Shown here piece by piece: positions 20,172 to 48,271 of a stretch of 64,000 nt of DNA. The notes beneath the pieces were generated by a model, which was not told where the DNA came from, searched no databases, and worked only from the letters and a program-made list of their open reading frames with translations. The stretch covers positions 154,628,001 through 154,692,000 of the forward strand of contig NC_043000.1 of NCBI RefSeq assembly GCF_006345805.1, read 5' to 3'. Origin of the DNA: Octopus sinensis. Taxonomy: Eukaryota. Positions within the stretch are counted from its first letter, which is position 1. Every line of letters begins with the position of its first letter. Both the position numbers and the translations under genes were made by a program.

Positions 20172-21712
20172 TTAATGCCATTCTATGAACCGAGCTAAGG
20201 TTAAAACTCAGAAGTGATTCACCTATAGTTTTAGTATTTAGGTTATATCAAAATGTTAAGAAACATATTTATGTCATACACAAATTTATAAGCCATGTAG
20301 ATAGTATTGTTATCATATAGTTTGCACATGTAAAATATCTTTAATTTCTTACTATCATAATTAAGAATAAATAATCAGCTGGTGAAAGAGTTTCTAAGTT
20401 GTCTAATGCAGTTTTGTACATTCTTAATATATCTCTGATTTTTGTTTTTAGAATGAAGATTACATGTTTTAACTCCTGAATCTCAGGTCAGCATGTTTTG
20501 TAATAAGGACAACATCACCATAACCAGAAATATCAGATGAATATCTTATTTGATTGCAACTGGTTTGCTTTATGAAGAACTGTTCAGGCTACCCTGCAAA
20601 ACAACTATAAAACAAATATAAGAAAAATATCTAAGTTCATTTTAAGTGTATAGTTATATTGAAAGTTACATATTGTACTAATACAGAACATTTACAGTTC
20701 CGTATCGTAAGTTAGTTTGTTAACAAATGATAGTCATTATATTTTAGTATATTGGAAATATCAAGTAAACGAAGAAGACATTCACTTAATGAAAAGAAAA
20801 GATGGTTTGTTACAGAAGACAAAATATATCAGTATGTGGAGAACTTGTGACACAACTGTGACATAGTTTGATGTCTTCGAACAAACAATATGTTACATTA
20901 TAAATATTTTGAGTGTGGAGAACATGTAACAATATTGTTTCACAGTTTAGTATACTAAGAAAGATTATTAGTATGTTATAACACACTGTGGATACTAGTG
21001 TGTGGAGAACTTATAACAATACCATATCATAATTTAGTATACTGTCACAGACATGCTGATATGTAGCCTTGAAGTGTTATGTCATAACATATCTCAGATG
21101 ATTGACGTGTTATTATGGACATTTGTGAAGAACTTGTGACAGAGTTTAGTATATTAACCAGAAACAGCCATTGTTATATAAGAATATATCTATTGCTATA
21201 TGGGAGAACTTGTAACAGAACTGTGTTATAGTTTTGTATACTACCAGCAGCAATCATGTTACTAGAAATAAAATTGTATGTGGAGAATTTGTAACAGTAC
21301 CATGTGGAGATTTAGTATATCAGCAAAAGCGGCCAACATAGTAGCAAATTAATTGATATTAGGGTCTGGAGAATTTAAAATAATACCATGTCATAGCTTA
21401 GTACATGAATAAATTGTAGACTACAAAATTCTTCACCAAAATATATAAATAAATATAATAATAATAATAATTTAACCTCTAGAGTCAAGTCCTCGAGGTT
21501 CTGTTCCTTAGAATGCAAGGAGAGGGAGAGAGAGAGAGTGAGAGAGAGAGAAAGAGAGAGTGAAAGGGAGAGTGCATTTAGAAGAGAGTAAAGAACCAAA
21601 TTTTGATATACAACATTGAGATGGGAATAAAGTGTCAAGTGCCAGTGCTCTTACGAATTAACAATTGATTACAATACTACACCACCTGCTTATTTCTTTA
21701 CTGAGAAAATAA

Positions 21713-21793
21713 CTAAAGACTGTAGTAATGGCTTCTGCTGAAAGTTTTAAACAACCCTTGGATAAGTTTCTCTTCTATGACCCAGATCAATCA
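21713..21793 (+). pseudogene. CR1/L2-like LINE C-terminal remnant (duplicated at ~24871-24945)
   Basis: Translates LKTVVMASAESFKQPLDKFLFYDPDQS, which matches the ..VVxA..SFKxxLDKFL..PDQ end typical of CR1-group ORF2. Confidence 0.55.
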
Positions 21794-22088
21794 TCTTTAT
21801 TTACAAACCACATTACAACCAATAAAGAGTGACCTACAGCAACTAACTAATGCATTGACTATAACTATACACACACAGTCACTGACAAAGAAAATACAAT
21901 CCAACATACACTGTTAAAACTAAATAAAACCATTTATAGTACTCAAAAGAGGCAGTATTATAACATATCCAAAATACACAATGGTTCAAAGCATCTAAAG
22001 ATCTAAAGGACAAAATAAAGTCACTTTTTCAATTTATTAAATATATTAGTGAAGTATATGACTTAGCTTTAGTCAGAGTGTTACAGAA

Positions 22089-22265
22089 TATTGGTTTCAA
22101 ATTTTGGCACAAGGCCAGCAAGTTCGACCTCAGTACTCAGCAGGTACCTATTTTATTGACCCTAAAGGGATGGAAGGCAAAGTTGACCTCAGTCGATTTG
22201 AACTCAGAACATAAAGACAGATGAAATGGTGCTAAGCATTTTGCCTGCCTGGCATGCTAATAATT
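22089..22265 (-). mobile_element. degraded family A-related SINE
   Basis: Contains ggatggaaggcaaagttgacctcagtcgatttgaactcagaac. Confidence 0.75.
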
Positions 22266-22643
22266 TTTCACAATTCTCCATCTGTTACATAATATTAGCT
22301 ATAATAATATATAGAGAACATGCAACTTTAATATTCCGTAGTTTTGTGGTGGATGTGGTAAAGTACTCTAACATAACTTGGTATACTAAGTATTGGTATG
22401 TTATAATACATTACATATATTGGTATGTGGAGAAATGTTGTTGCTGTATTGTAATATATTATAGGTTAGTGGGGAACATTACAAATACTGCACAATAATT
22501 TAGTATACTAATTGTTGGTATGTTACAGTTCAGTACATATGTTAGTAAGTGGAGAACTGTTGCTGTACTGTAATACATTACAATTTAGTATATTAATACA
22601 GGAAGTTAGTATGTGAAGAACATGACAAAGAAGTGTATGATAA

Positions 22644-22723
22644 TTTAGTATACTAATAGTTTAGTATACTAATAGTTTAGTATACTAATAGTTTAGTATA
22701 CTAATAGTTTAGTATACTAATAG
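22644..22723. repeat. 5 x 16-bp perfect tandem repeat TTTAGTATACTAATAG
   Basis: Five exact copies, each containing the 12-bp palindrome TTAGTATACTAA. Confidence 0.95.
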
Positions 22724-23222
22724 TTAGTACATAAGTTTGAAACATTGGAAATGATATCTAAAAGTTTAGTAGACTAAAAAAAGAAGACATCTGGTATGTT
22801 ACTGAACATGAAACATATCATTATATGGAGAACTTGTGACATAACTGTGACATAGTGTGATATAGTCAAACAAACAATATGTTACATTACAAATATTTTG
22901 AGTGTGGAGAACATGTAACAATATTGTCTCACAGTTTAGTATACTAAGAAAGATTATTAGTATGTTATAACACACTGTGGATACTAGCGTGTGGAGAACT
23001 TATAACAATACCATATCATAATTTAGTATACTATCACAGACAGGTTGATATATTGCTTGGATGTGTTATGTTATAACATATCTTAGATGGTTGATATGTT
23101 ATTATAGATATATGTATATGAAGAATATATAATAGTACCATATTAGGAATTAGTGTACTAATAGAAACAGAAAACAAAAACAACAAACAGACAAGCAAAA
23201 ACAAAATGCTACTATTATGTAA

Positions 23223-23433
23223 GGCGGCAGGCTGGCAGAACCGTTAGCACGCCGGGCGAAAAGCGTAGCCATATTTCATCTGCCGTTACGTTCTGAGTTC
23301 AAATTCCGCTGAGGTCGACTTTGCCTTTCATCCTTTCGGGGTCGATAAATTAAGTACCAGTTACGCACTGGGGTCGATATCTGTCCTTGTTTGTCCCCTC
23401 TGTGTTTAGACCCTTGTGGGTAATAAAGGAACA
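23223..23433 (+). mobile_element. SINE family A
   Basis: GGCGGCAGGCTGGCAGAACCGTTAGC head, GTTCAAATTCC box B and Nin/Deu-like domain. Small internal deletion. Flanked by TATGTAA(GG) repeats. Confidence 0.9.
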
Positions 23434-26400
23434 TATGTAAGGAGGGCATATGATATATTTGTATATGGAGAAGCTGTAACAGGACTGTGTCACAATTTGG
23501 TATACTAACAGCAGCATATTACAAAACATGTATCAGTATACAGAGAATTTGTAATACTAATTTGTGCTATATCATAGCTGGGAAACACAATCATCCAAAT
23601 CAACTCAAGGAGAAAATGAAGTGTTTCAATCCATTAAATATATTAGGAGAGTATATGATTAATTATATACTTAATTATATTAATTATATGTTACAGAATA
23701 TTATGCATAATGGCAAGTGGGGAACATTACTATAATATACTACAGTTTAGTGCAATGTAGTGGAAACATGACAAAGTACTGAATCATATTTTAGTATACT
23801 ATCGGTATGTTACAGTACATTACATATATTTGTATGTGGAGAACTGTTGGTGTACTATAACATATCACAATTTAATATAGGACATGACAAAAGACTACTA
23901 TTTAGCATACTAACTGTTGGTATATTGCAGTACATTTTTTGTATGTGGAGAACTGCTGTTGTACTGCAATATATCATAGTTTAGTGGTGAACATGACAAA
24001 TACAATATAATAATATAGTATACTATCGGTTGAATTAGAAATTGAAGAAGTAACATATTTCTTTAATGATGTCTAAAAGTTCACTATATTAGATAAAAGA
24101 AGACAGTTGGTACATTACAGAACAAAAACGTATCATTATATGGAGAACTTGTCATATAACTGTGACATAGTTTAATATATTCAAACAAACAATATGTTAT
24201 GTTACAAATATTTTGTATGTGGAGAACATGTAACAGTGTTGTCTCACAGTTCAGTATACTAAGAAAGATTATTAGTATGTTATAACACACTGTGGATATC
24301 AGTGTGTGGAGAACTTATAACAATACCATATCATAATTTAGTATACTATCACAGACAGGCTGATATATTGCAGTGATGTGATATGTTATCACACAGCTAA
24401 GATATCAATATTTATGTGTAGAGAACTTGTGACAATACCACGATAGAATGTTGTATACTCTCAAACTCCCTGCATCTCCACTGAAAAACAAACAAAAAAT
24501 GATGTTATAAAAAAAAGACCATGTGATATATTTGTATGGTGAGAACTTGTAACAGGCCTGTTTAATAGTTTCGTATGCTATCTGCAGCTAACAGCATGTT
24601 ACAAAAGATGTAATATATCAACGTGTAGATAATTTGCAATTATACCGTGTGGTAGTTTAGTACATAAAAATATTCTGAACGAATAACTTTTCACTGAAAA
24701 GACCAGAAAATCATAACACCTCTGCTCTCCACAAATATCTATAAGTAATTGTTTAGAACCATGGCCCTTAGCTGTTTTGCCTAGAATGTGAAAGAAAGAG
24801 AAAGAAGAGAGAGAGAAAGAGAGAAAGAAAGAGAGAGAGAGAAAGAGAGAGAGAGAAAAAGAGAGAGAGGATTGTAACAAAGGCTTCTGCTAAAAATTTT
24901 AAACAAATCCTTGGATAAGTTTCTCCCCTGTCACAGATCAGTTATCTTTATCAGGCTATAACCAATAAAAGTAGTCTAGTGTAACTACTAAATGATACAT
25001 TAACTAAAAATATACACACAGTCATTGATAAAGAAAATACAATCCAAGATACAATCATCATCCTCCTCCTCCTCCTCCTCATCATCATCGTTTAACGTCC
25101 GTTTTCCATGCTAGTATGGGTTGGATGGATATGTTAAAACTAAATAAAGCCATATACAATACTCAATGGAGGAAGAATTACAGCATGTCCAGAATGCACA
25201 ATGGTTCAAACCAACAATAGAACAAAATAAATACATTATGTTTTGGTCTACTAAATATACTAATAAGGTAATTGGATTTAGTTTTAGAAAATGGCACATA
25301 ATGATAAGCGGAGAGTATATAACTATAATATACTGTAGTTTAGTAGCGTTAGTATGTAGCGAACTGTTGATGCTACAGTGCATGTGTATGTGGAGAACTG
25401 CTATTGTACAGTAATATATTATAGTTTAGTGGAGAACATGATTGCATAATAATTTAGTGTACTAATAGTTTGTAAGTAGATTTGAGATATAAGAAATTGA
25501 AGAAGTAACATATTTGTCCAATGATGTCTAAAAGTTCAGTAAACTAAAAAAAGAAGACAGTATGTATAAAACATATCAGTATGTGGAGAACTTGTGACAT
25601 AGTTTGATATATTCAAAAAATATGTTACATTACAAATATTTTGAGTGTGGAGAACATGTAACAATATTATCTCACAGTTTAGTATACTAAGGAAGATTAT
25701 TAGTATGTTATAACACACTGTGGATACTAGTGTGTGGAGAACTTATAACAATACCATATTATAATTTAGTATACTGTTACAGACATGCTGATATGTTGCC
25801 TTGAGTGTGTTATGTCATAGCATATCTCATGATTAGTATGTTATTATAGATTATAGATAAAAATACTATAGATATTTTTATCCAGAGAACATGTAGCACT
25901 ACCATGTCAAAGTTTAGTGTACTACAAAACAGATTGCCATTATTATATAACGATATATCTATTGTTGAATGGGAAAACTTGTAACAGGATTGTGTTACTG
26001 TTTTATATACTAACGTTTTCTACATCTAGAAAATTTTGGTGGGTAAAGCACCAAAATTTGGTATACAGCATTGATATAAGAATAAAATGTTAAGTGCCAA
26101 AGAATATATAACAGAATTGTAGCATATCATATATTACTAATTCATTTGCTATTTTAACACATATAGGTCAATTTGGGGAGAACACGACAGTCTTGTATGA
26201 TAATTTTATATACTCATAGTTGATTTGTTACAGTACATTACATATAGTATAATATGGAGAATATGTAAGAGTATTGTACCGTAATTTAGTATTTGGTAAA
26301 TTTGTATTTGTACAATATCATGGTTACAGCACATAAGTGATGGCTATATATGGAAAGGTATGTCACAATTTGGTATCACAGCAATTTGATATTCTAATAA

Positions 26401-27249
26401 AATTAGTATATAACAGTATGATACATTTATCAACATGTAGTGAACGTATAACAGTATAATTTAACAACTTGTATTGGCACAAAATGATATATTGGTAACA
26501 AAAGAGCATGATTAATTGAATTGACCTCAGTGTCTAACTGGTACTAGTTTCTACTGATCTGGGGAAATATGATCTTGGAACACACTAGGAGGAATTAAAT
26601 ACTTCAAGGCATTTAATATAGTGCTCTATCATTTTCTGCTATTACATCACCTCCAATAATCTATTATATTTGACAATAACAGATGGCATGATATAATACA
26701 TAACTCACAACATATAATAGAATTATGCCAAAATTTAGTATGTTCCTATTATAAGTTGAACAATGTTTATATTAGTAGATTTGCAATATATTTCAGTACA
26801 ATGTCACAACATAATTTACTAACAGGGGAAAATATGTACATTACATATGTTACTATGTAGAAAAACATGTGTATCTCTGCTTCAAAATTTTGCATAACGA
26901 AAAGACTAAAGGCATGTTCAAATGTTGTATATATTATAGTATATGGTTGCATCGTAAGCTGTTGTTTCATATTGTAACTTAGTATAATAACAGATTTGTA
27001 TGTACAAGTCTATTGCATATATTTGTGAAAAGTGTGACTGTATCACAGTTTAATATAGAAAGTTTATGTTACAGTATATTGCATAAGGAGTAGTATATTG
27101 TGACAAGTTTGTGACATTACTTTAGCAGATTAAAAACCTATGTCACATTTTTGGGGAGTCAGAGGTTGCATATGTTACAATACATACAACATGGAGAATA
27201 TGTAATAGTGTTTTAGTTAGTTAAACTGCAGCCATGCTGGGGCACCGCC

Positions 27250-27642
27250 TTACTCTTTTACTTGTTTCAGTCATTTGACTGCGGCCATGCTGGAGTACCA
27301 CCTTTAGTCGAGCAACTCGCCCCCGGGACTTATTCTTTGTAAGCCCAGTACTTATTCTATCAGTCTCTTTTGCCGAACCTCTAAGTGACGGGGACATAAA
27401 CACACCAGCATCGGTTGTCAAGCAATGCTAGGGGGACAAACACAGACACACAAACACACACATATATATATATACATATATATGACGAGCTTCTTTCAGT
27501 TTCCGTCTACCAAATCCACTCACAAGGCTTTGGTCGGCCCGAGGCTATAGTAGAAAGCACTTGCCCAAGATGCCATGCAGTGGGACTGAACCTGGAACCA
27601 TGTGGTTGGTAAACAAGCTACTTACCACACATCCACTCCTGC
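27250..27642 (-). mobile_element. SINE family C (CORE-like), near full length
   Basis: The minus strand has the head GGAGTGGATGTGTGGTAAG, box B GGTTCAGTCCC, GGCATCTTGGGCAAGTG and a tail ending GTAAAAGAGTAA. Confidence 0.9.
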
Positions 27643-28471
27643 ATTTTAATGTATGTGTCATTATGTTACAGTAGAGCTTTACTGTATGTAAAGAAAGATA
27701 TTATGTCAGAGTTTAGTAAGAAATAAAAACCATTATGTTACAGTACATTACAAACATTATTTTGTGGAGAACATGTAATGTTGCTGTATCATATTGTAGT
27801 TTATTCATTAGCAAAGTTATCTAATATAACTATCATAGGGTAGATATAATTAACTTTACTAACCAGAAGTCACCATCCTAAATAGGAATGTCATCAGATA
27901 AGTGATCTTAGATATACTGTATCTGAATAAATAACTAACTAATTATGGGTAGATTACTTCAGAAATGTCCTACATTTGGGTGGCCTGTGGTTAAACAACA
28001 ATTCCCTATTTTTATAACAGATGATAAATGTTGATTTCTTTGGACTAACTTCATGGTTAATTTATTTTGTAAGAGATTAAGTGGATGGGAGGGGACAATC
28101 AATTGACCCAACCTAATCATGTTACCTTATGTTACCTTCAAGGGATGAAAAACAAAGATGGCTGCCAATAGGAATTTAACTCATTCAGATAAGAGAAGCA
28201 TTGGATTGGTTACAATGAAGAGTCCAGATAGGTGCACGTTATTGCTCTGTCAATGTCAACAACCTTCAATACATAATACATGCAAAATGGTATGTTTTTG
28301 ATTCCACATTATTAGGGAAGACTGTGTAAGCAATTGAGTCAACCATGTGATATTACAGGTATTTATTTTAGCTGTTTGATTTGTACTTTAACAGAATTTG
28401 AGTTCATTGCGATTATGGAAAAAAAACCCCAAACAAATGAATAAGTAATGTGTGGGGAGAAACTGAATTCT

Positions 28472-33554: not shown

Positions 33555-33758
33555 CTATAGGCACAATACCTAAAATTTGGGGAAGTGGGGATAATCAGTT
33601 GCGCTCCAGTGCTCAGGTGGTCACTTATTTTGTTGACCCTGAAAGAATGAAAGGCAAAGTTGACCTTGGCAGAATTTGAACTCAGAACGTAAAGACGGAT
33701 GAAATGATGCAAAGCTTTTTTGCCTGGCATGCCAATGATTCTGGCAGATTGCTGCCTT
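33555..33758 (-). mobile_element. older family A-related SINE
   Basis: Contains gaatgaaaggcaaagttgaccttggcagaatttgaactcagaacg. Same subfamily as 56538-56743. Confidence 0.8.
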
Positions 33759-33813
33759 AATAATAATAATAATAATAATAATGATAATAGTAATAATAAT
33801 AATAATAATAATA

Positions 33814-33844
<31 letters not shown>

Positions 33845-33908
33845 TGATTATAATAATAATGATAATAACAATAATGATTATAATAATAATGGTAATAATA
33901 ATAATAAT

Positions 33909-34380
33909 GGCATCATCGAAAATGCTAATGCAAAGATCCTGTGGGATTTTAGGATTCAGTGTGACCATGAGATAGAGAATAGGAAGCCAGACATAGTCTT
34001 AATTGAGAAAGAAAACAAACTATGTTGGATCATAGATATAGCATGCCCAGTTGACAACAAGGTATATGATAAGGAAGAAAGAAAAGTCGATAGATATGAC
34101 AAGTTAGCTTGGGAGGTTAAGCAGTTGTTGTCGATGGAAAAGGTGGTAGTAGTACCAATAACTGTCTGAGCCCTGGGAACAGTGAGTAAAAATCTTGAGA
34201 TGTACATGGAACAAACAAGGGCTGCAATAAAGGTGGAGCACTTGCAGAAAGCAGCACTGCTTGGAACAGCTCGAATACTCTGGAAGGTGCTCGAAAAATA
34301 AGGGGTGTTACCTTAGTTCACTGGTAGTGAACAGCTGACACTGTAGTACATCTCTAGCTTTAGAAGCTGTGCAAAGGCAA
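33909..34380 (+). pseudogene. 5'-truncated R4/Dong-like LINE: restriction-like endonuclease domain plus 3' UTR
   Basis: One frame reads GIIENANAKILWDFRIQCDHEIENRKPDIV...IIDIACP...KEERKVDRYDKL...VVPITV*ALG...LQKAALLGTARILWKVLEK* (stop 34299-34301). A single internal stop falls in the GALG motif. (TAA)n on both sides. Confidence 0.92.
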
Positions 34381-45603: not shown

Positions 45604-45852
45604 GTATATATACCAAATATATACGTTATATTTATTATTTGCACATTACTTAATCATCGTTATATGTTTTATCTTATACTAAATCTCTCTATAATGTGTA
45701 ATTTATCTAAATGGTATAATTTAATTTTTCATTATTGAATTGATGAAAGGTGTTTTTTTTTCTAATTTATATATATATATTATATTTTGTGAAATTTGAT
45801 TTAGTTTTCTAAATTGAATTTTTCCCTGTAAGTCTGGAATAATATTCCCTCA

Positions 45853-45894
<42 letters not shown>

Positions 45895-46700
45895 TACGCA
45901 GGGAAAGAGAGAGAGAGAGAGTGAGAGAGAAAGAGAGAGAAATGTACCAACACTTGATCGGTACTAATTTTCCTCAATAGATTCAAGCTACTCAAAATGT
46001 AGCAGTAACTTGAAAATGAGCATGAATTAGTCTCTTGTACCATACTTCTGCTACTTTTTTAGGTGTCTTTGTAGTTATGAGCAGACCTTCTTGGACTTGC
46101 CATCCTTAAGCCAGCAGAACAGTGAAGATATGAGAATTGGAGGGCTTGCCCCACCACTTGTCTTGTAATCATTTTTAGCTAAGTAGATTAACATGAAATG
46201 ATGTGCCTTGCTTAAGAACACTAAATATAACATACATCTATATATATATCACAGTATTAACCAGATTATAGGATGTTATGGTACATTGCTGGTCACAATG
46301 CGCTTTCCATTGTCTTAGCTTCACAATAATGCTGTCACGCTGGCTAGGCAAGCAGGCCACTGTACTTCCAATCAGTTGACTATACAGCTGAGTGGACTGG
46401 AAATGAAGTGTTTTGCTCGTCTAGTAATTGGACCCATGGTTGTGAGTGCAACACCCTAACCATTAGGCCATACACTTCATATATGTATATATATATACAC
46501 ACATAGACGTATATATATATTCACCTCCAACAATAGAGAGCAGCTGCCTTATTCCTTTCTATATTGGCTAACTCTGATGAGCATAAGGTTATATAATCAA
46601 ATTGTTACCTAACACTCCATGTATTCCTACCATGAAACCAGTTGGTAAGATCAATTGTGATGGATATATACTGTACATTTTGGATAATAAATAAATATAT

Positions 46701-46753
<53 letters not shown>

Positions 46754-47001
46754 GTATATATACCAATATATACGTTATATTTATTATTTGCACATTACTT
46801 AATCATCGTTATATGTTTTATCTTATACTAAATCTCTCTATAATGTGTAATTTATCTAAATGGTATAATTTAATTTTTCATTATTGAATTGATGAAAGGT
46901 GTTTTTTTTTCTAATTTATATATATATATTATATTTTGTGAAATTTGATTTAGTTTTCTAAATTGAATTTTTCCCTGTAAGTCTGGAATAATATTCCCTC
47001 A

Positions 47002-47053
<52 letters not shown>

Positions 47054-47880
47054 GCAGGGAAGAGAGAGAGAGAGAGAGTGAGAGAGAAGAGAGAGAAATG
47101 TACCAACACTTGATCGGTACTAATTTTCCTCAATAGATTCAAGCTACTCAAAATGTAGCAGTAACTTGAAAATGAGCATGAATTAGTCTCTTGTACCATA
47201 CTTCTGCTACTTTTTTAGGTGTCTTTGTAGTTATGAGCAGACCTTCTTGGACTTGCCATCCTTAAGCCAGCAGAACAGTGAAGATATGAGAATTGGAGGG
47301 CTTGCCCCACCACTTGTCTTGTAATCATTTTTAGCTAAGTAGATTAACATGAAATGATGTGCCTTGCTTAAGAACACTAAATATAACATACATCTATATA
47401 TATATCACAGTATTAACCAGATTATAGGATGTTATGGTACATTGCTGGTCACAATGCGCTTTCCATTGTCTTAGCTTCACAATAATGCTGTCACGCTGGC
47501 TAGGCAAGCAGGCCACTGTACTTCCAATCAGTTGACTATACAGCTGAGTGGACTGGAAATGAAGTGTTTTGCTCGTCTAGTAATTGGACCCATGGTTGTG
47601 AGTGCAACACCCTAACCATTAGGCCATACACTTCATATATGTATATATATATACACACATAGACGTATATATATATATTCACCTCCAACAATAGAGAGCA
47701 GCTGCCTTATTCCTTTCTATATTGGCTAACTCTGATGAGCATAAGGTTATATAATCAAATTGTTACCTAACACTCCATCGTATTCCTACCATGAAACCAG
47801 TTGGTAAGATCAATTGTGATGGATATATACTGTACATTTTGGATAATAAATAAATATATATATATATATATATATATATT
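45575..47880. repeat. near-identical ~1.16-kb direct tandem duplication bounded by (TA)n
   Basis: 45575-46740 vs 46741-47880. The differences I can see are microsatellite length changes and 1-bp indels. Confidence 0.95.
46563..46655 (+). ncRNA. decayed long-stem-II hammerhead-like motif (second copy 47721-47814)
   Basis: CTGATGA (46574-46580)...GAAA-CCA-GT-TGGT-A, with stem III ACCA/TGGT and a GUA triplet. Stems I and II are weak. Confidence 0.45.
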
Positions 47881-48271
47881 TATGTATACGTGCATTTAGA
47901 TGTTGCTTCCTGTCCAGTGAATGCTTATCATGTACAGAGAGCTTCATTTTGCTATGATCATCAGGTAACAGCTGTTACAACTCAGAATCCCTTTTCACAA
48001 TATTTTTCTGGATGTGGTTTTCTTGCTCGTGTCTATTTTTGACTGTTATTTTTGTCTCCCCTAAATGGTTACTTTTTAATGCTTAATATTTACTTTCTTT
48101 GAATCTATTGGTGATGTTACTTGTTTTCCTTAATTATTTTTGCCATTGCTTGTTTGTTGAAATTTTATGTTAATCAAACAAATTCAGCTTGCTTGTTGGT
48201 CAAGTTTGTTTCTTTGATTACAAGGAAGTCTGTGTTTCATAATATTTCCTAAATGTTGATTCTTGTGATAG

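Follow-up and report, generated by a model that had tools for sequence, protein, structure and literature searches.

Tandem GGAGAAC hairpin units in Octopus sinensis resemble the let-7 precursor loop and may form a decoy for Lin28

Lin28 and let-7 constitute a conserved timer of animal development. The zinc knuckles of Lin28 recognize a GGAG that lies in the 3′ bulge of the loop of let-7, and the uridylating enzyme TUT4 grips the adjacent stem (PMC3759924; PMC12790862). A (U)GAU site 5–30 nt upstream serves the cold-shock domain (10.1101/202036). We describe a 7-kb array of hairpin-like units carrying GGAGAAC in Octopus sinensis (NC_043000.1, positions 154,628,001–154,692,000; this 64-kb stretch is hereafter the window, and positions are counted from its first letter). 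We asked how the array compares with the let-7 precursor of the same genome and with described RNAs that bind LIN28.

In Caenorhabditis elegans, lep-5 is a long non-coding RNA (lncRNA), structured and proposed to bind LIN-28 and to time let-7 production (PMC6606027). It is one compact LEP-2/LIN-28 scaffold, and its available text does not mention GGAG, whereas the octopus locus consists of tandem let-7-like loops. An engineered sponge RNA with LIN28 sites sequesters the protein and raises let-7, as do competitor sites in mRNAs (PMC8670721); unlike a dedicated natural array, these sites are artificial or dispersed. Octopuses do possess long non-coding loci, namely Zmast/Zfest (10.1101/2024.12.09.627507). 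By description only, Zmast lies at ~19.6 Mb of the Z chromosome, whereas our array lies at 154.65 Mb of a 164.8-Mb contig, and the available Zmast text mentions neither hairpins nor structure. No natural, dedicated array mimicking the let-7 loop was found in the searchable literature, a scope that excludes subscription papers and MirGeneDB.

A covariance model detects 43 plus-strand units at 20713–27805 (E ≤ 1; 30 of the 43 are its training sequences), and a hidden Markov model (HMM) also gives 43. An earlier reading of the sequence letters alone, the original prediction, had estimated 35–45 units by eye, and all five stem pairs that it quoted are exact. The units measure ~80–95 nt and share one strand, with spacers and insertions between them. 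Each runs from a palindrome, TTAGTATACTAA, through 6–19 nt, TGTTAYA, a loop with an inner hairpin, GGAGAAC and a 22-nt arm that starts with W-TGTRACA, to the next palindrome. The loop between TGTTAYA and GGAGAAC is 23 nt long in 15 of 30 aligned units; the distance from GGAGAAC to the palindrome is 22 nt in 17 of 29 anchors and 26–29 nt in a long subtype. All 20 exact plus-strand copies of GGAGAAC in the window fall within the array, and all four minus-strand copies fall outside it. The palindrome TTTAGTATACTAA occurs 44 times with up to three mismatches (6.3 in shuffles) and 30 times with up to two (0.7 in shuffles). Beyond what had been described, the array has this fixed 22-nt spacing, four higher-order blocks with paralogous spacers, and ~2 kb of spacers and dispersed-repeat insertions within its 7 kb. 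Three features are needed for the comparisons below:

20713–27805, plus strand: the whole array, 43 units of ~80–95 nt with spacers and insertions.
20788–21407, plus strand: higher-order block 1, units A–G, of which A, B and C (20788–21043) are the best conserved between blocks.
20949–21043, plus strand: model unit C, comprising the palindrome AGTATACT, a 5′ arm ending TGTTATAA, an inner stem-loop, GGAGAAC (21004–21010), a 22-nt 3′ arm and TTTAGTATACT.

The array occupies a single locus in the 2.72-Gb genome. Five genome searches placed 4/4, 7/9, 8/8, 11/12 and 5/5 of their matches within it; these counts, 35 of 38 in total, are lower bounds, and the remaining three matches are lone hits without array context. 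Identity with the internal minisatellite of a known transposon, an outcome that the original prediction had accepted as fatal to itself, is thus not borne out. The flanking 10-kb stretches contain no units, and a metagenome scan returned 21 single matches, none with array context. The array has no Rfam match at gathering score and holds no open reading frame (ORF) of at least 100 aa with a Pfam match, in line with the original prediction, which had recognized no described family and seen no long ORF; ARAGORN finds no tRNA in it. Judged by divergence, the array is old and predates insertions that are now 17% diverged: its paralogous spacers differ by 22%, and an inserted repeat differs by ~17% from its relatives. 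The array is therefore real, old, single-locus and motif-constrained, sits in no Rfam family and is not part of a dispersed transposon.

Evidence for the constraint comes from comparing the blocks, between which units A–C diverge by 8–13%, units D–G by 22–33% and spacers by 22%. Within A–C, GGAGAAC shows no difference over 63 compared sites. The 15-nt motif GGAGAAC-W-TGTRACA varies in 2 of 45 columns versus 39 of 201 other columns (p = 0.008), in a test that is only partly independent because the motif was defined on the same array. By this measure GGAGAAC-W-TGTRACA is constrained. Differences in A–C increase from arm positions 1–8 (2/65) through arm positions 9–22 (9/122) and the loop (14/128) to the distal 5′ arm (20/112). 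Across all subtypes, with a mean column identity of otherwise 52%, G2, A3, G4, A5 and A6 of GGAGAA are kept in 28–30 of 30 units (G4 in 28), and GAAGAA variants are tolerated in place of the core.

The let-7 precursor of the same genome has the order inner stem-AA-GGAGAAC-TGTACAAC, and its basal strand follows GGAGAAC after 21 nt (22 in the array). Its fold shows an inner stem and a bulge on the 3′ side, and GGAGAAC closes its long loop. Counted from sequence, this loop has 25 nt and that of unit C 27 nt; the microRNA median is 15–16 nt (PMC11701709). None of nine other microRNA hairpins of the genome, one of the mir-10 family and eight of miR-2, has GGAG in its loop. On a profile of the array motif, the score of let-7 is met by 44 of 230,064 background positions, and for a site chosen beforehand we regard this sequence match as suggestive. 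The pre-let-7 family (Rfam RF00027) thus shares with the array an identical GGAGAAC, placed behind an inner stem where a long loop reaches its 3′ end and followed by (W)TGTA and 21–22 nt to the basal strand. It differs in that the array has no let-7 seed, mostly ill-paired lower arms and ~43 tandem copies on shared palindromic bases, and in that Rfam, HMM and covariance models do not detect one from the other. The let-7 seed or mature sequence occurs on the 5′ arm of no unit, and Rfam scans of the array give no let-7 match at E ≤ 5. Six unit strings had no occurrence in the main texts of papers or in 24,410 characters of the PMC9699675 supplements, nor had six words in the available PDF supplement of that paper. 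The let-7 gene itself lies ~1.3 kb downstream of a mir-10 family hairpin (L014:1501–1579 and L076, C18:29,753,040–29,754,489).

Against the criteria for microRNAs, 9 of 28 unit arms reach 16 pairs; let-7 and four miR-2 hairpins score 17–19 by the same method, and true microRNAs average 19 ± 1.6 arm pairs (PMC11701709). Duplex energies of 22-nt-type units range from −4 to −14 kcal/mol, versus −19 to −26 for controls. Size does fit: the 22-nt arm of 17/29 anchors and a unit C precursor that would measure 71 nt (cut sites assumed) agree with arms of 20–27 nt and molluscan precursors under 80 nt (PMC11701709). As for processing motifs, G stands at +5 after the arm in 22/28 units, +3 is not G, and CNNC occurs in 4/28 versus 6% in the background. 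The control miR-2 cluster, eight hairpins inside 1.7 kb (L078–L085, C1:111,033,291–111,034,941), resembles the array in having several same-strand hairpins at one locus; it keeps the mature arm and 18–19 pairs while its loop varies. In the array, by contrast, the loop end is the best-kept part and pairing is lost. One further candidate control with a below-cut-off mir-10 family score (L077, C19:45,847,335–45,847,409) is a perfect inverted repeat of ~52 bp per arm, probably not a microRNA, and was dropped. The array is not a let-7 family member and mostly fails the microRNA pairing criteria, yet it is shaped like the let-7 loop; by sequence, that likeness may reflect descent or convergence.

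Like pre-let-7, the units are predicted to fold with a short upper stem, an inner stem-loop and, on the 3′ side, a purine bulge. Unit C is predicted as one 95-nt hairpin (z −4.6) whose 11-bp basal stem is formed by its two palindromes, and units of the C and long types are predicted as extended hairpins far more stable than shuffles (nine units, z −3.6 to −5.2). Own-arm pairing beats pairing with the arms of other units in types B, L, L2, L3, N and P, is only slightly better in C, and is no better in A, D, E, F and G; unit-specific arm pairing is limited to B and the long-type units. The original prediction had called GGAGAAC unpaired and the most conserved part of the unit, and this holds for its core: local folding leaves GAGAA less paired than any other stretch (probability unpaired 0.65–0.72), and GAG is unpaired in 16/22 units folded singly. 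In types A and E, a local hairpin formed by GAAC...GTTT is a competing fold. An alternative hairpin with the palindrome at its apex was overall no better than own-arm pairing. The array shows no clear 11-nt periodicity.

Our tentative explanation, possible but short of probable, is that the array encodes a multivalent RNA that mimics pre-let-7, a decoy predicted to bind Lin28 and to free let-7 from repression. The repeats, the identity and position of the motif, its constraint, the let-7 gene and one Lin28 exon are direct observations. That exon encodes a cold-shock domain, has intact AG/GT splice ends and lies on an unplaced 52-kb contig (C10901; L021:1428–1605, minus strand); among known structures it comes closest to Lin28A and Lin28B (top PDB hit Lin28A, E 1.8e-12). 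Y-box-like cold-shock sequences on two other contigs (C10363, L022; C9733, L023) are intronless, frameshifted and apparently processed copies. We infer that the array is likely transcribed from the plus strand. Dozens of GGAGAAC loops would then bind Lin28 through its zinc knuckles, and Lin28, once titrated, would release let-7 from repression. With weak lower-arm pairing in most units and no let-7 seed, the transcript would mostly stay unprocessed, and a decoy role would explain the conservation of loop end and stem top alongside drifting lower arms. A lookup of 911 bases of the array returned 21 sequencing runs, 20 with the stretch or part of it, none of these recorded as RNA and 17 only guessed to be RNA, which is evidence neither way.

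Several results weigh against such a decoy. Whole-unit models, both HMM and covariance, do not detect let-7, and the likeness therefore extends no further than the loop end, the stem top and the overall geometry; pairwise likeness between array units and let-7 reaches p < 0.05 in only 4/10 units. Let-7 was itself examined because GGAG on the 3′ side of a structured loop resembles the Lin28 site of pre-let-7, which makes the match partly post hoc and its profile score less telling. Lin28 reads G1 and G4 of GGAG (PMC3759924), and G1 of GGAGAA is the least conserved letter, kept in only 24/30 units, a rate equal to that of consensus G positions in the background. Folded in long context, the entire GGAG has a mean unpaired probability of 0.27, against 0.75 in let-7; among human let-7 folds, 6 of 11 likewise bury GGAG (PMC3759924). 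The cold-shock site, scored as (U)GAU 5–30 nt upstream of GGAG, has GAU in 12/28 units versus 27% in the background, and GAU is missing from the let-7 loop of this genome as well. Zinc-knuckle and other Lin28 exons were found neither on the 52-kb contig nor by family and pattern search, leaving one exon only, and table S2 of PMC9699675, in the part available, gives LIN28 as 0 for Octopus.

Evidence for selection on RNA structure is mixed. The stems had been described as covarying; RNAalifold on 30 aligned units yields no consensus pair, and the covariation score of the named structure is reached by 111/500 shuffles. A 0/500 covariation result is discounted because its alignment was model-fitted and includes six minus-strand hits. 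With hand-set registers, 186/210 cells of the 7-bp stem are paired versus 181 in shuffles (p = 0.015); the 210 cells are 168 Watson-Crick, 18 G-U, 7 A-C, 2 gaps and 15 others. Only three distinct changes affect both sides of the stem. Palindrome variants favour G-U-type changes 22 to 14, and the strand-neutral count has no G-U excess over mismatched-arm controls (39:29; 0.57 versus 0.59). Lacking a consensus, covariation above shuffles and a G-U excess, the data do not demonstrate RNA-level selection, and the caution in the original prediction that template switching in quasi-palindromes can mimic covariation stands because of the last of these. Its readings as an RNA scaffold or small-RNA cluster gain a concrete candidate mechanism from the let-7-like loop and Lin28; as an argument for them, covariation is weak.

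Because no wobble bias appears and plus-strand transcription is itself conjectural, readings at the level of DNA have to be weighed. The array may be a functionless old minisatellite of palindromic words, shaped by unequal crossing-over, gene conversion among A–C and template switching, a reading that we hold unlikely although it ranks first among the alternatives. It would account for the missing consensus fold, the weak covariation, the many decayed units, the alternative folds that compete in many of them, and signs of slippage, among them the 16-nt array and deletions of 11 nt. Conversion, however, homogenizes tracts and not motifs, yet A–C variation avoids the motif; GAGAA persists across subtypes of low identity, and the array predates its diverged insertions. 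Least probable of the alternatives, and quite improbable in our view, is a DNA-level binding array, a satellite whose protein-binding box GGAGAAC-W-TGTRACA is phased two helical turns from the palindrome. The constraint on the box is real and needs no RNA, G-U pairs are not in excess, TGTNACA and AGTATACT are dyads, and 22 nt approximates two turns of DNA. Such a box sits poorly with the variable distance between the TGTTACA/TGTAACA halves (13–30 nt from the first half to GGAG), with G-rich units and C-rich spacers on the plus strand and with the long unit-specific arm pairing of several units; the best-conserved unit, C, breaks the p53 and DMRT cores. Splicing factors provide another reading. 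The consensus of SRSF1 is RGAAGAAC and the Tra2 site is AGAA. A transcribed array binding purine-rich factors of the SRSF1 or Tra2 type, acting either as a scaffold in the nucleus or as an intronic element in which splice-like signals recur, is in our estimate improbable, third among the alternatives. The invariant GAGAA core and the tolerated GAAGAA fit these motifs at least as well as they fit the decoy, 5′-splice-like GTATGT/GTAAGT words number 28 on the plus strand and 3 on the minus strand, and many arms end in YAG or precede TTTAG. Being part of the repeated unit, these words do not give independent counts, and an AT-rich 85-nt unit fits many motifs by chance. Furthermore, the let-7-like geometry is left unexplained, and a scan of 118 of the 253 candidate ORFs in the window and flanks revealed no host exon (none over the Pfam cut-off; short exons could escape).

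A tandem microRNA gene cluster is also unlikely, second in rank among the alternatives. It would yield a 3′-arm product (seeds UGUAACA, UGUGACA and UAUAACA), gated by the loop motif, with many decayed paralogues, and neighbouring hairpins would share each palindrome, which would close the base of the first on its 3′ side and that of the second on its 5′ side. Consistent with this, the 22-nt arm lies between fixed motifs, unit C has its 11-bp basal stem, and A–C divergence climbs from arm positions 1–8 to the distal 5′ arm. The arm starts with U or A in 21/22 canonical units, and the G at +5 is as for microRNAs (PMC11701709). Also in its favour, an octopus small-RNA survey lists neither ovary nor embryos before stage XI (PMC9699675). 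The cluster is opposed by the 94 novel genes of that survey, which fall in 90 families, none on a common scaffold in the available text, by the low pair counts relative to controls, by types A, D, E, F and G pairing no better with their own partner, by scarce CNNC and a +3 that is not G, and by a supposed seed that is less conserved than the loop motif. Hairpin ribozyme, p53, DMRT, RBPJ, Quaking, Puf and mirtron motifs were considered and none fits most units; Rfam is blank here too.

The remaining parts of the array and the insertions within it are as follows:

21420–22263: spacer 1, with a GA repeat, an A-rich stretch and a dispersed-repeat fragment; homologue of spacer 3 at 22% divergence.
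22264–22654, plus strand: long-type units (26–29 nt after GGAGAAC), the best-paired hairpins; 22501–22594 is an example.
22640–22729, plus strand: a 16-nt palindrome unit, ATAGTTTAGTATACTA, in 5.7 tandem copies with TACTAAT in each.
22781–23573, plus strand: higher-order block 2, interrupted by a dispersed repeat.
23215–23440: a dispersed repeat resembling a short interspersed nuclear element (SINE), inserted in block 2, with ~83% identity to other window copies.
23673–24024, plus strand: a second long-type group (23792–23881, 23903–23990).
24087–24661, plus strand: higher-order block 3.
24680–25255: spacer 3, paralogue of spacer 1.
25256–26011, plus strand: decayed long-type units and higher-order block 4 (25537–26011).
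26127–27232, plus strand: the tail, mostly decayed units, with 26216–26287 still intact.
27225–27650: a second SINE-like dispersed insertion, with 86–91% identity to nearby copies.
27721–27805, plus strand: the last unit, well paired.

A fused junction, TTAGT-GGAGAAC, recurs at 22428–22510, 23946–24024 and 25391–25464, where the end of a long-type unit abuts the next motif; at 22470, the arm after this junction pairs back onto the preceding arm. The window at large is rich in AT, microsatellites and dispersed repeats. At 45850–47900 a microsatellite order recurs at ~1.15 kb, suggesting local tandem duplication, and at 33708–34169 a fragment resembles, by eye, the C-terminal part of a retroelement protein of the type without long terminal repeats (none over the Pfam cut-off).

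Decoys built from repeated hairpins have a precedent in NORAD, a multivalent lncRNA of repeated units that binds Pumilio through UGUANAUA. Our array shares with NORAD its repeated hairpin units and many copies of one protein-binding word, and differs in motif and clade. Perhaps, and with the same reserve as for the decoy itself, the array belongs among such multivalent RNA decoys; the GGAGAAC it shares with the let-7 of its genome is a new observation. More speculative, and rather unlikely as a whole, is a fuller picture in which a natural lncRNA with ~40 seedless copies of the let-7 loop titrates Lin28, possibly with the uridylating enzyme docked, and times the let-7 switch in a cephalopod. 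Shared palindromic bases would permit alternate folding of neighbours, and a fall in Lin28 may allow the best-paired units to yield new microRNAs. If the array is instead a microRNA cluster, it would be a large family in cluster form that had escaped a survey whose available text has no clustered novel families (PMC9699675). If the decoy is real, the array would be an endogenous counterpart of the engineered LIN28 sponges and would offer a testable handle on cephalopod developmental timing.

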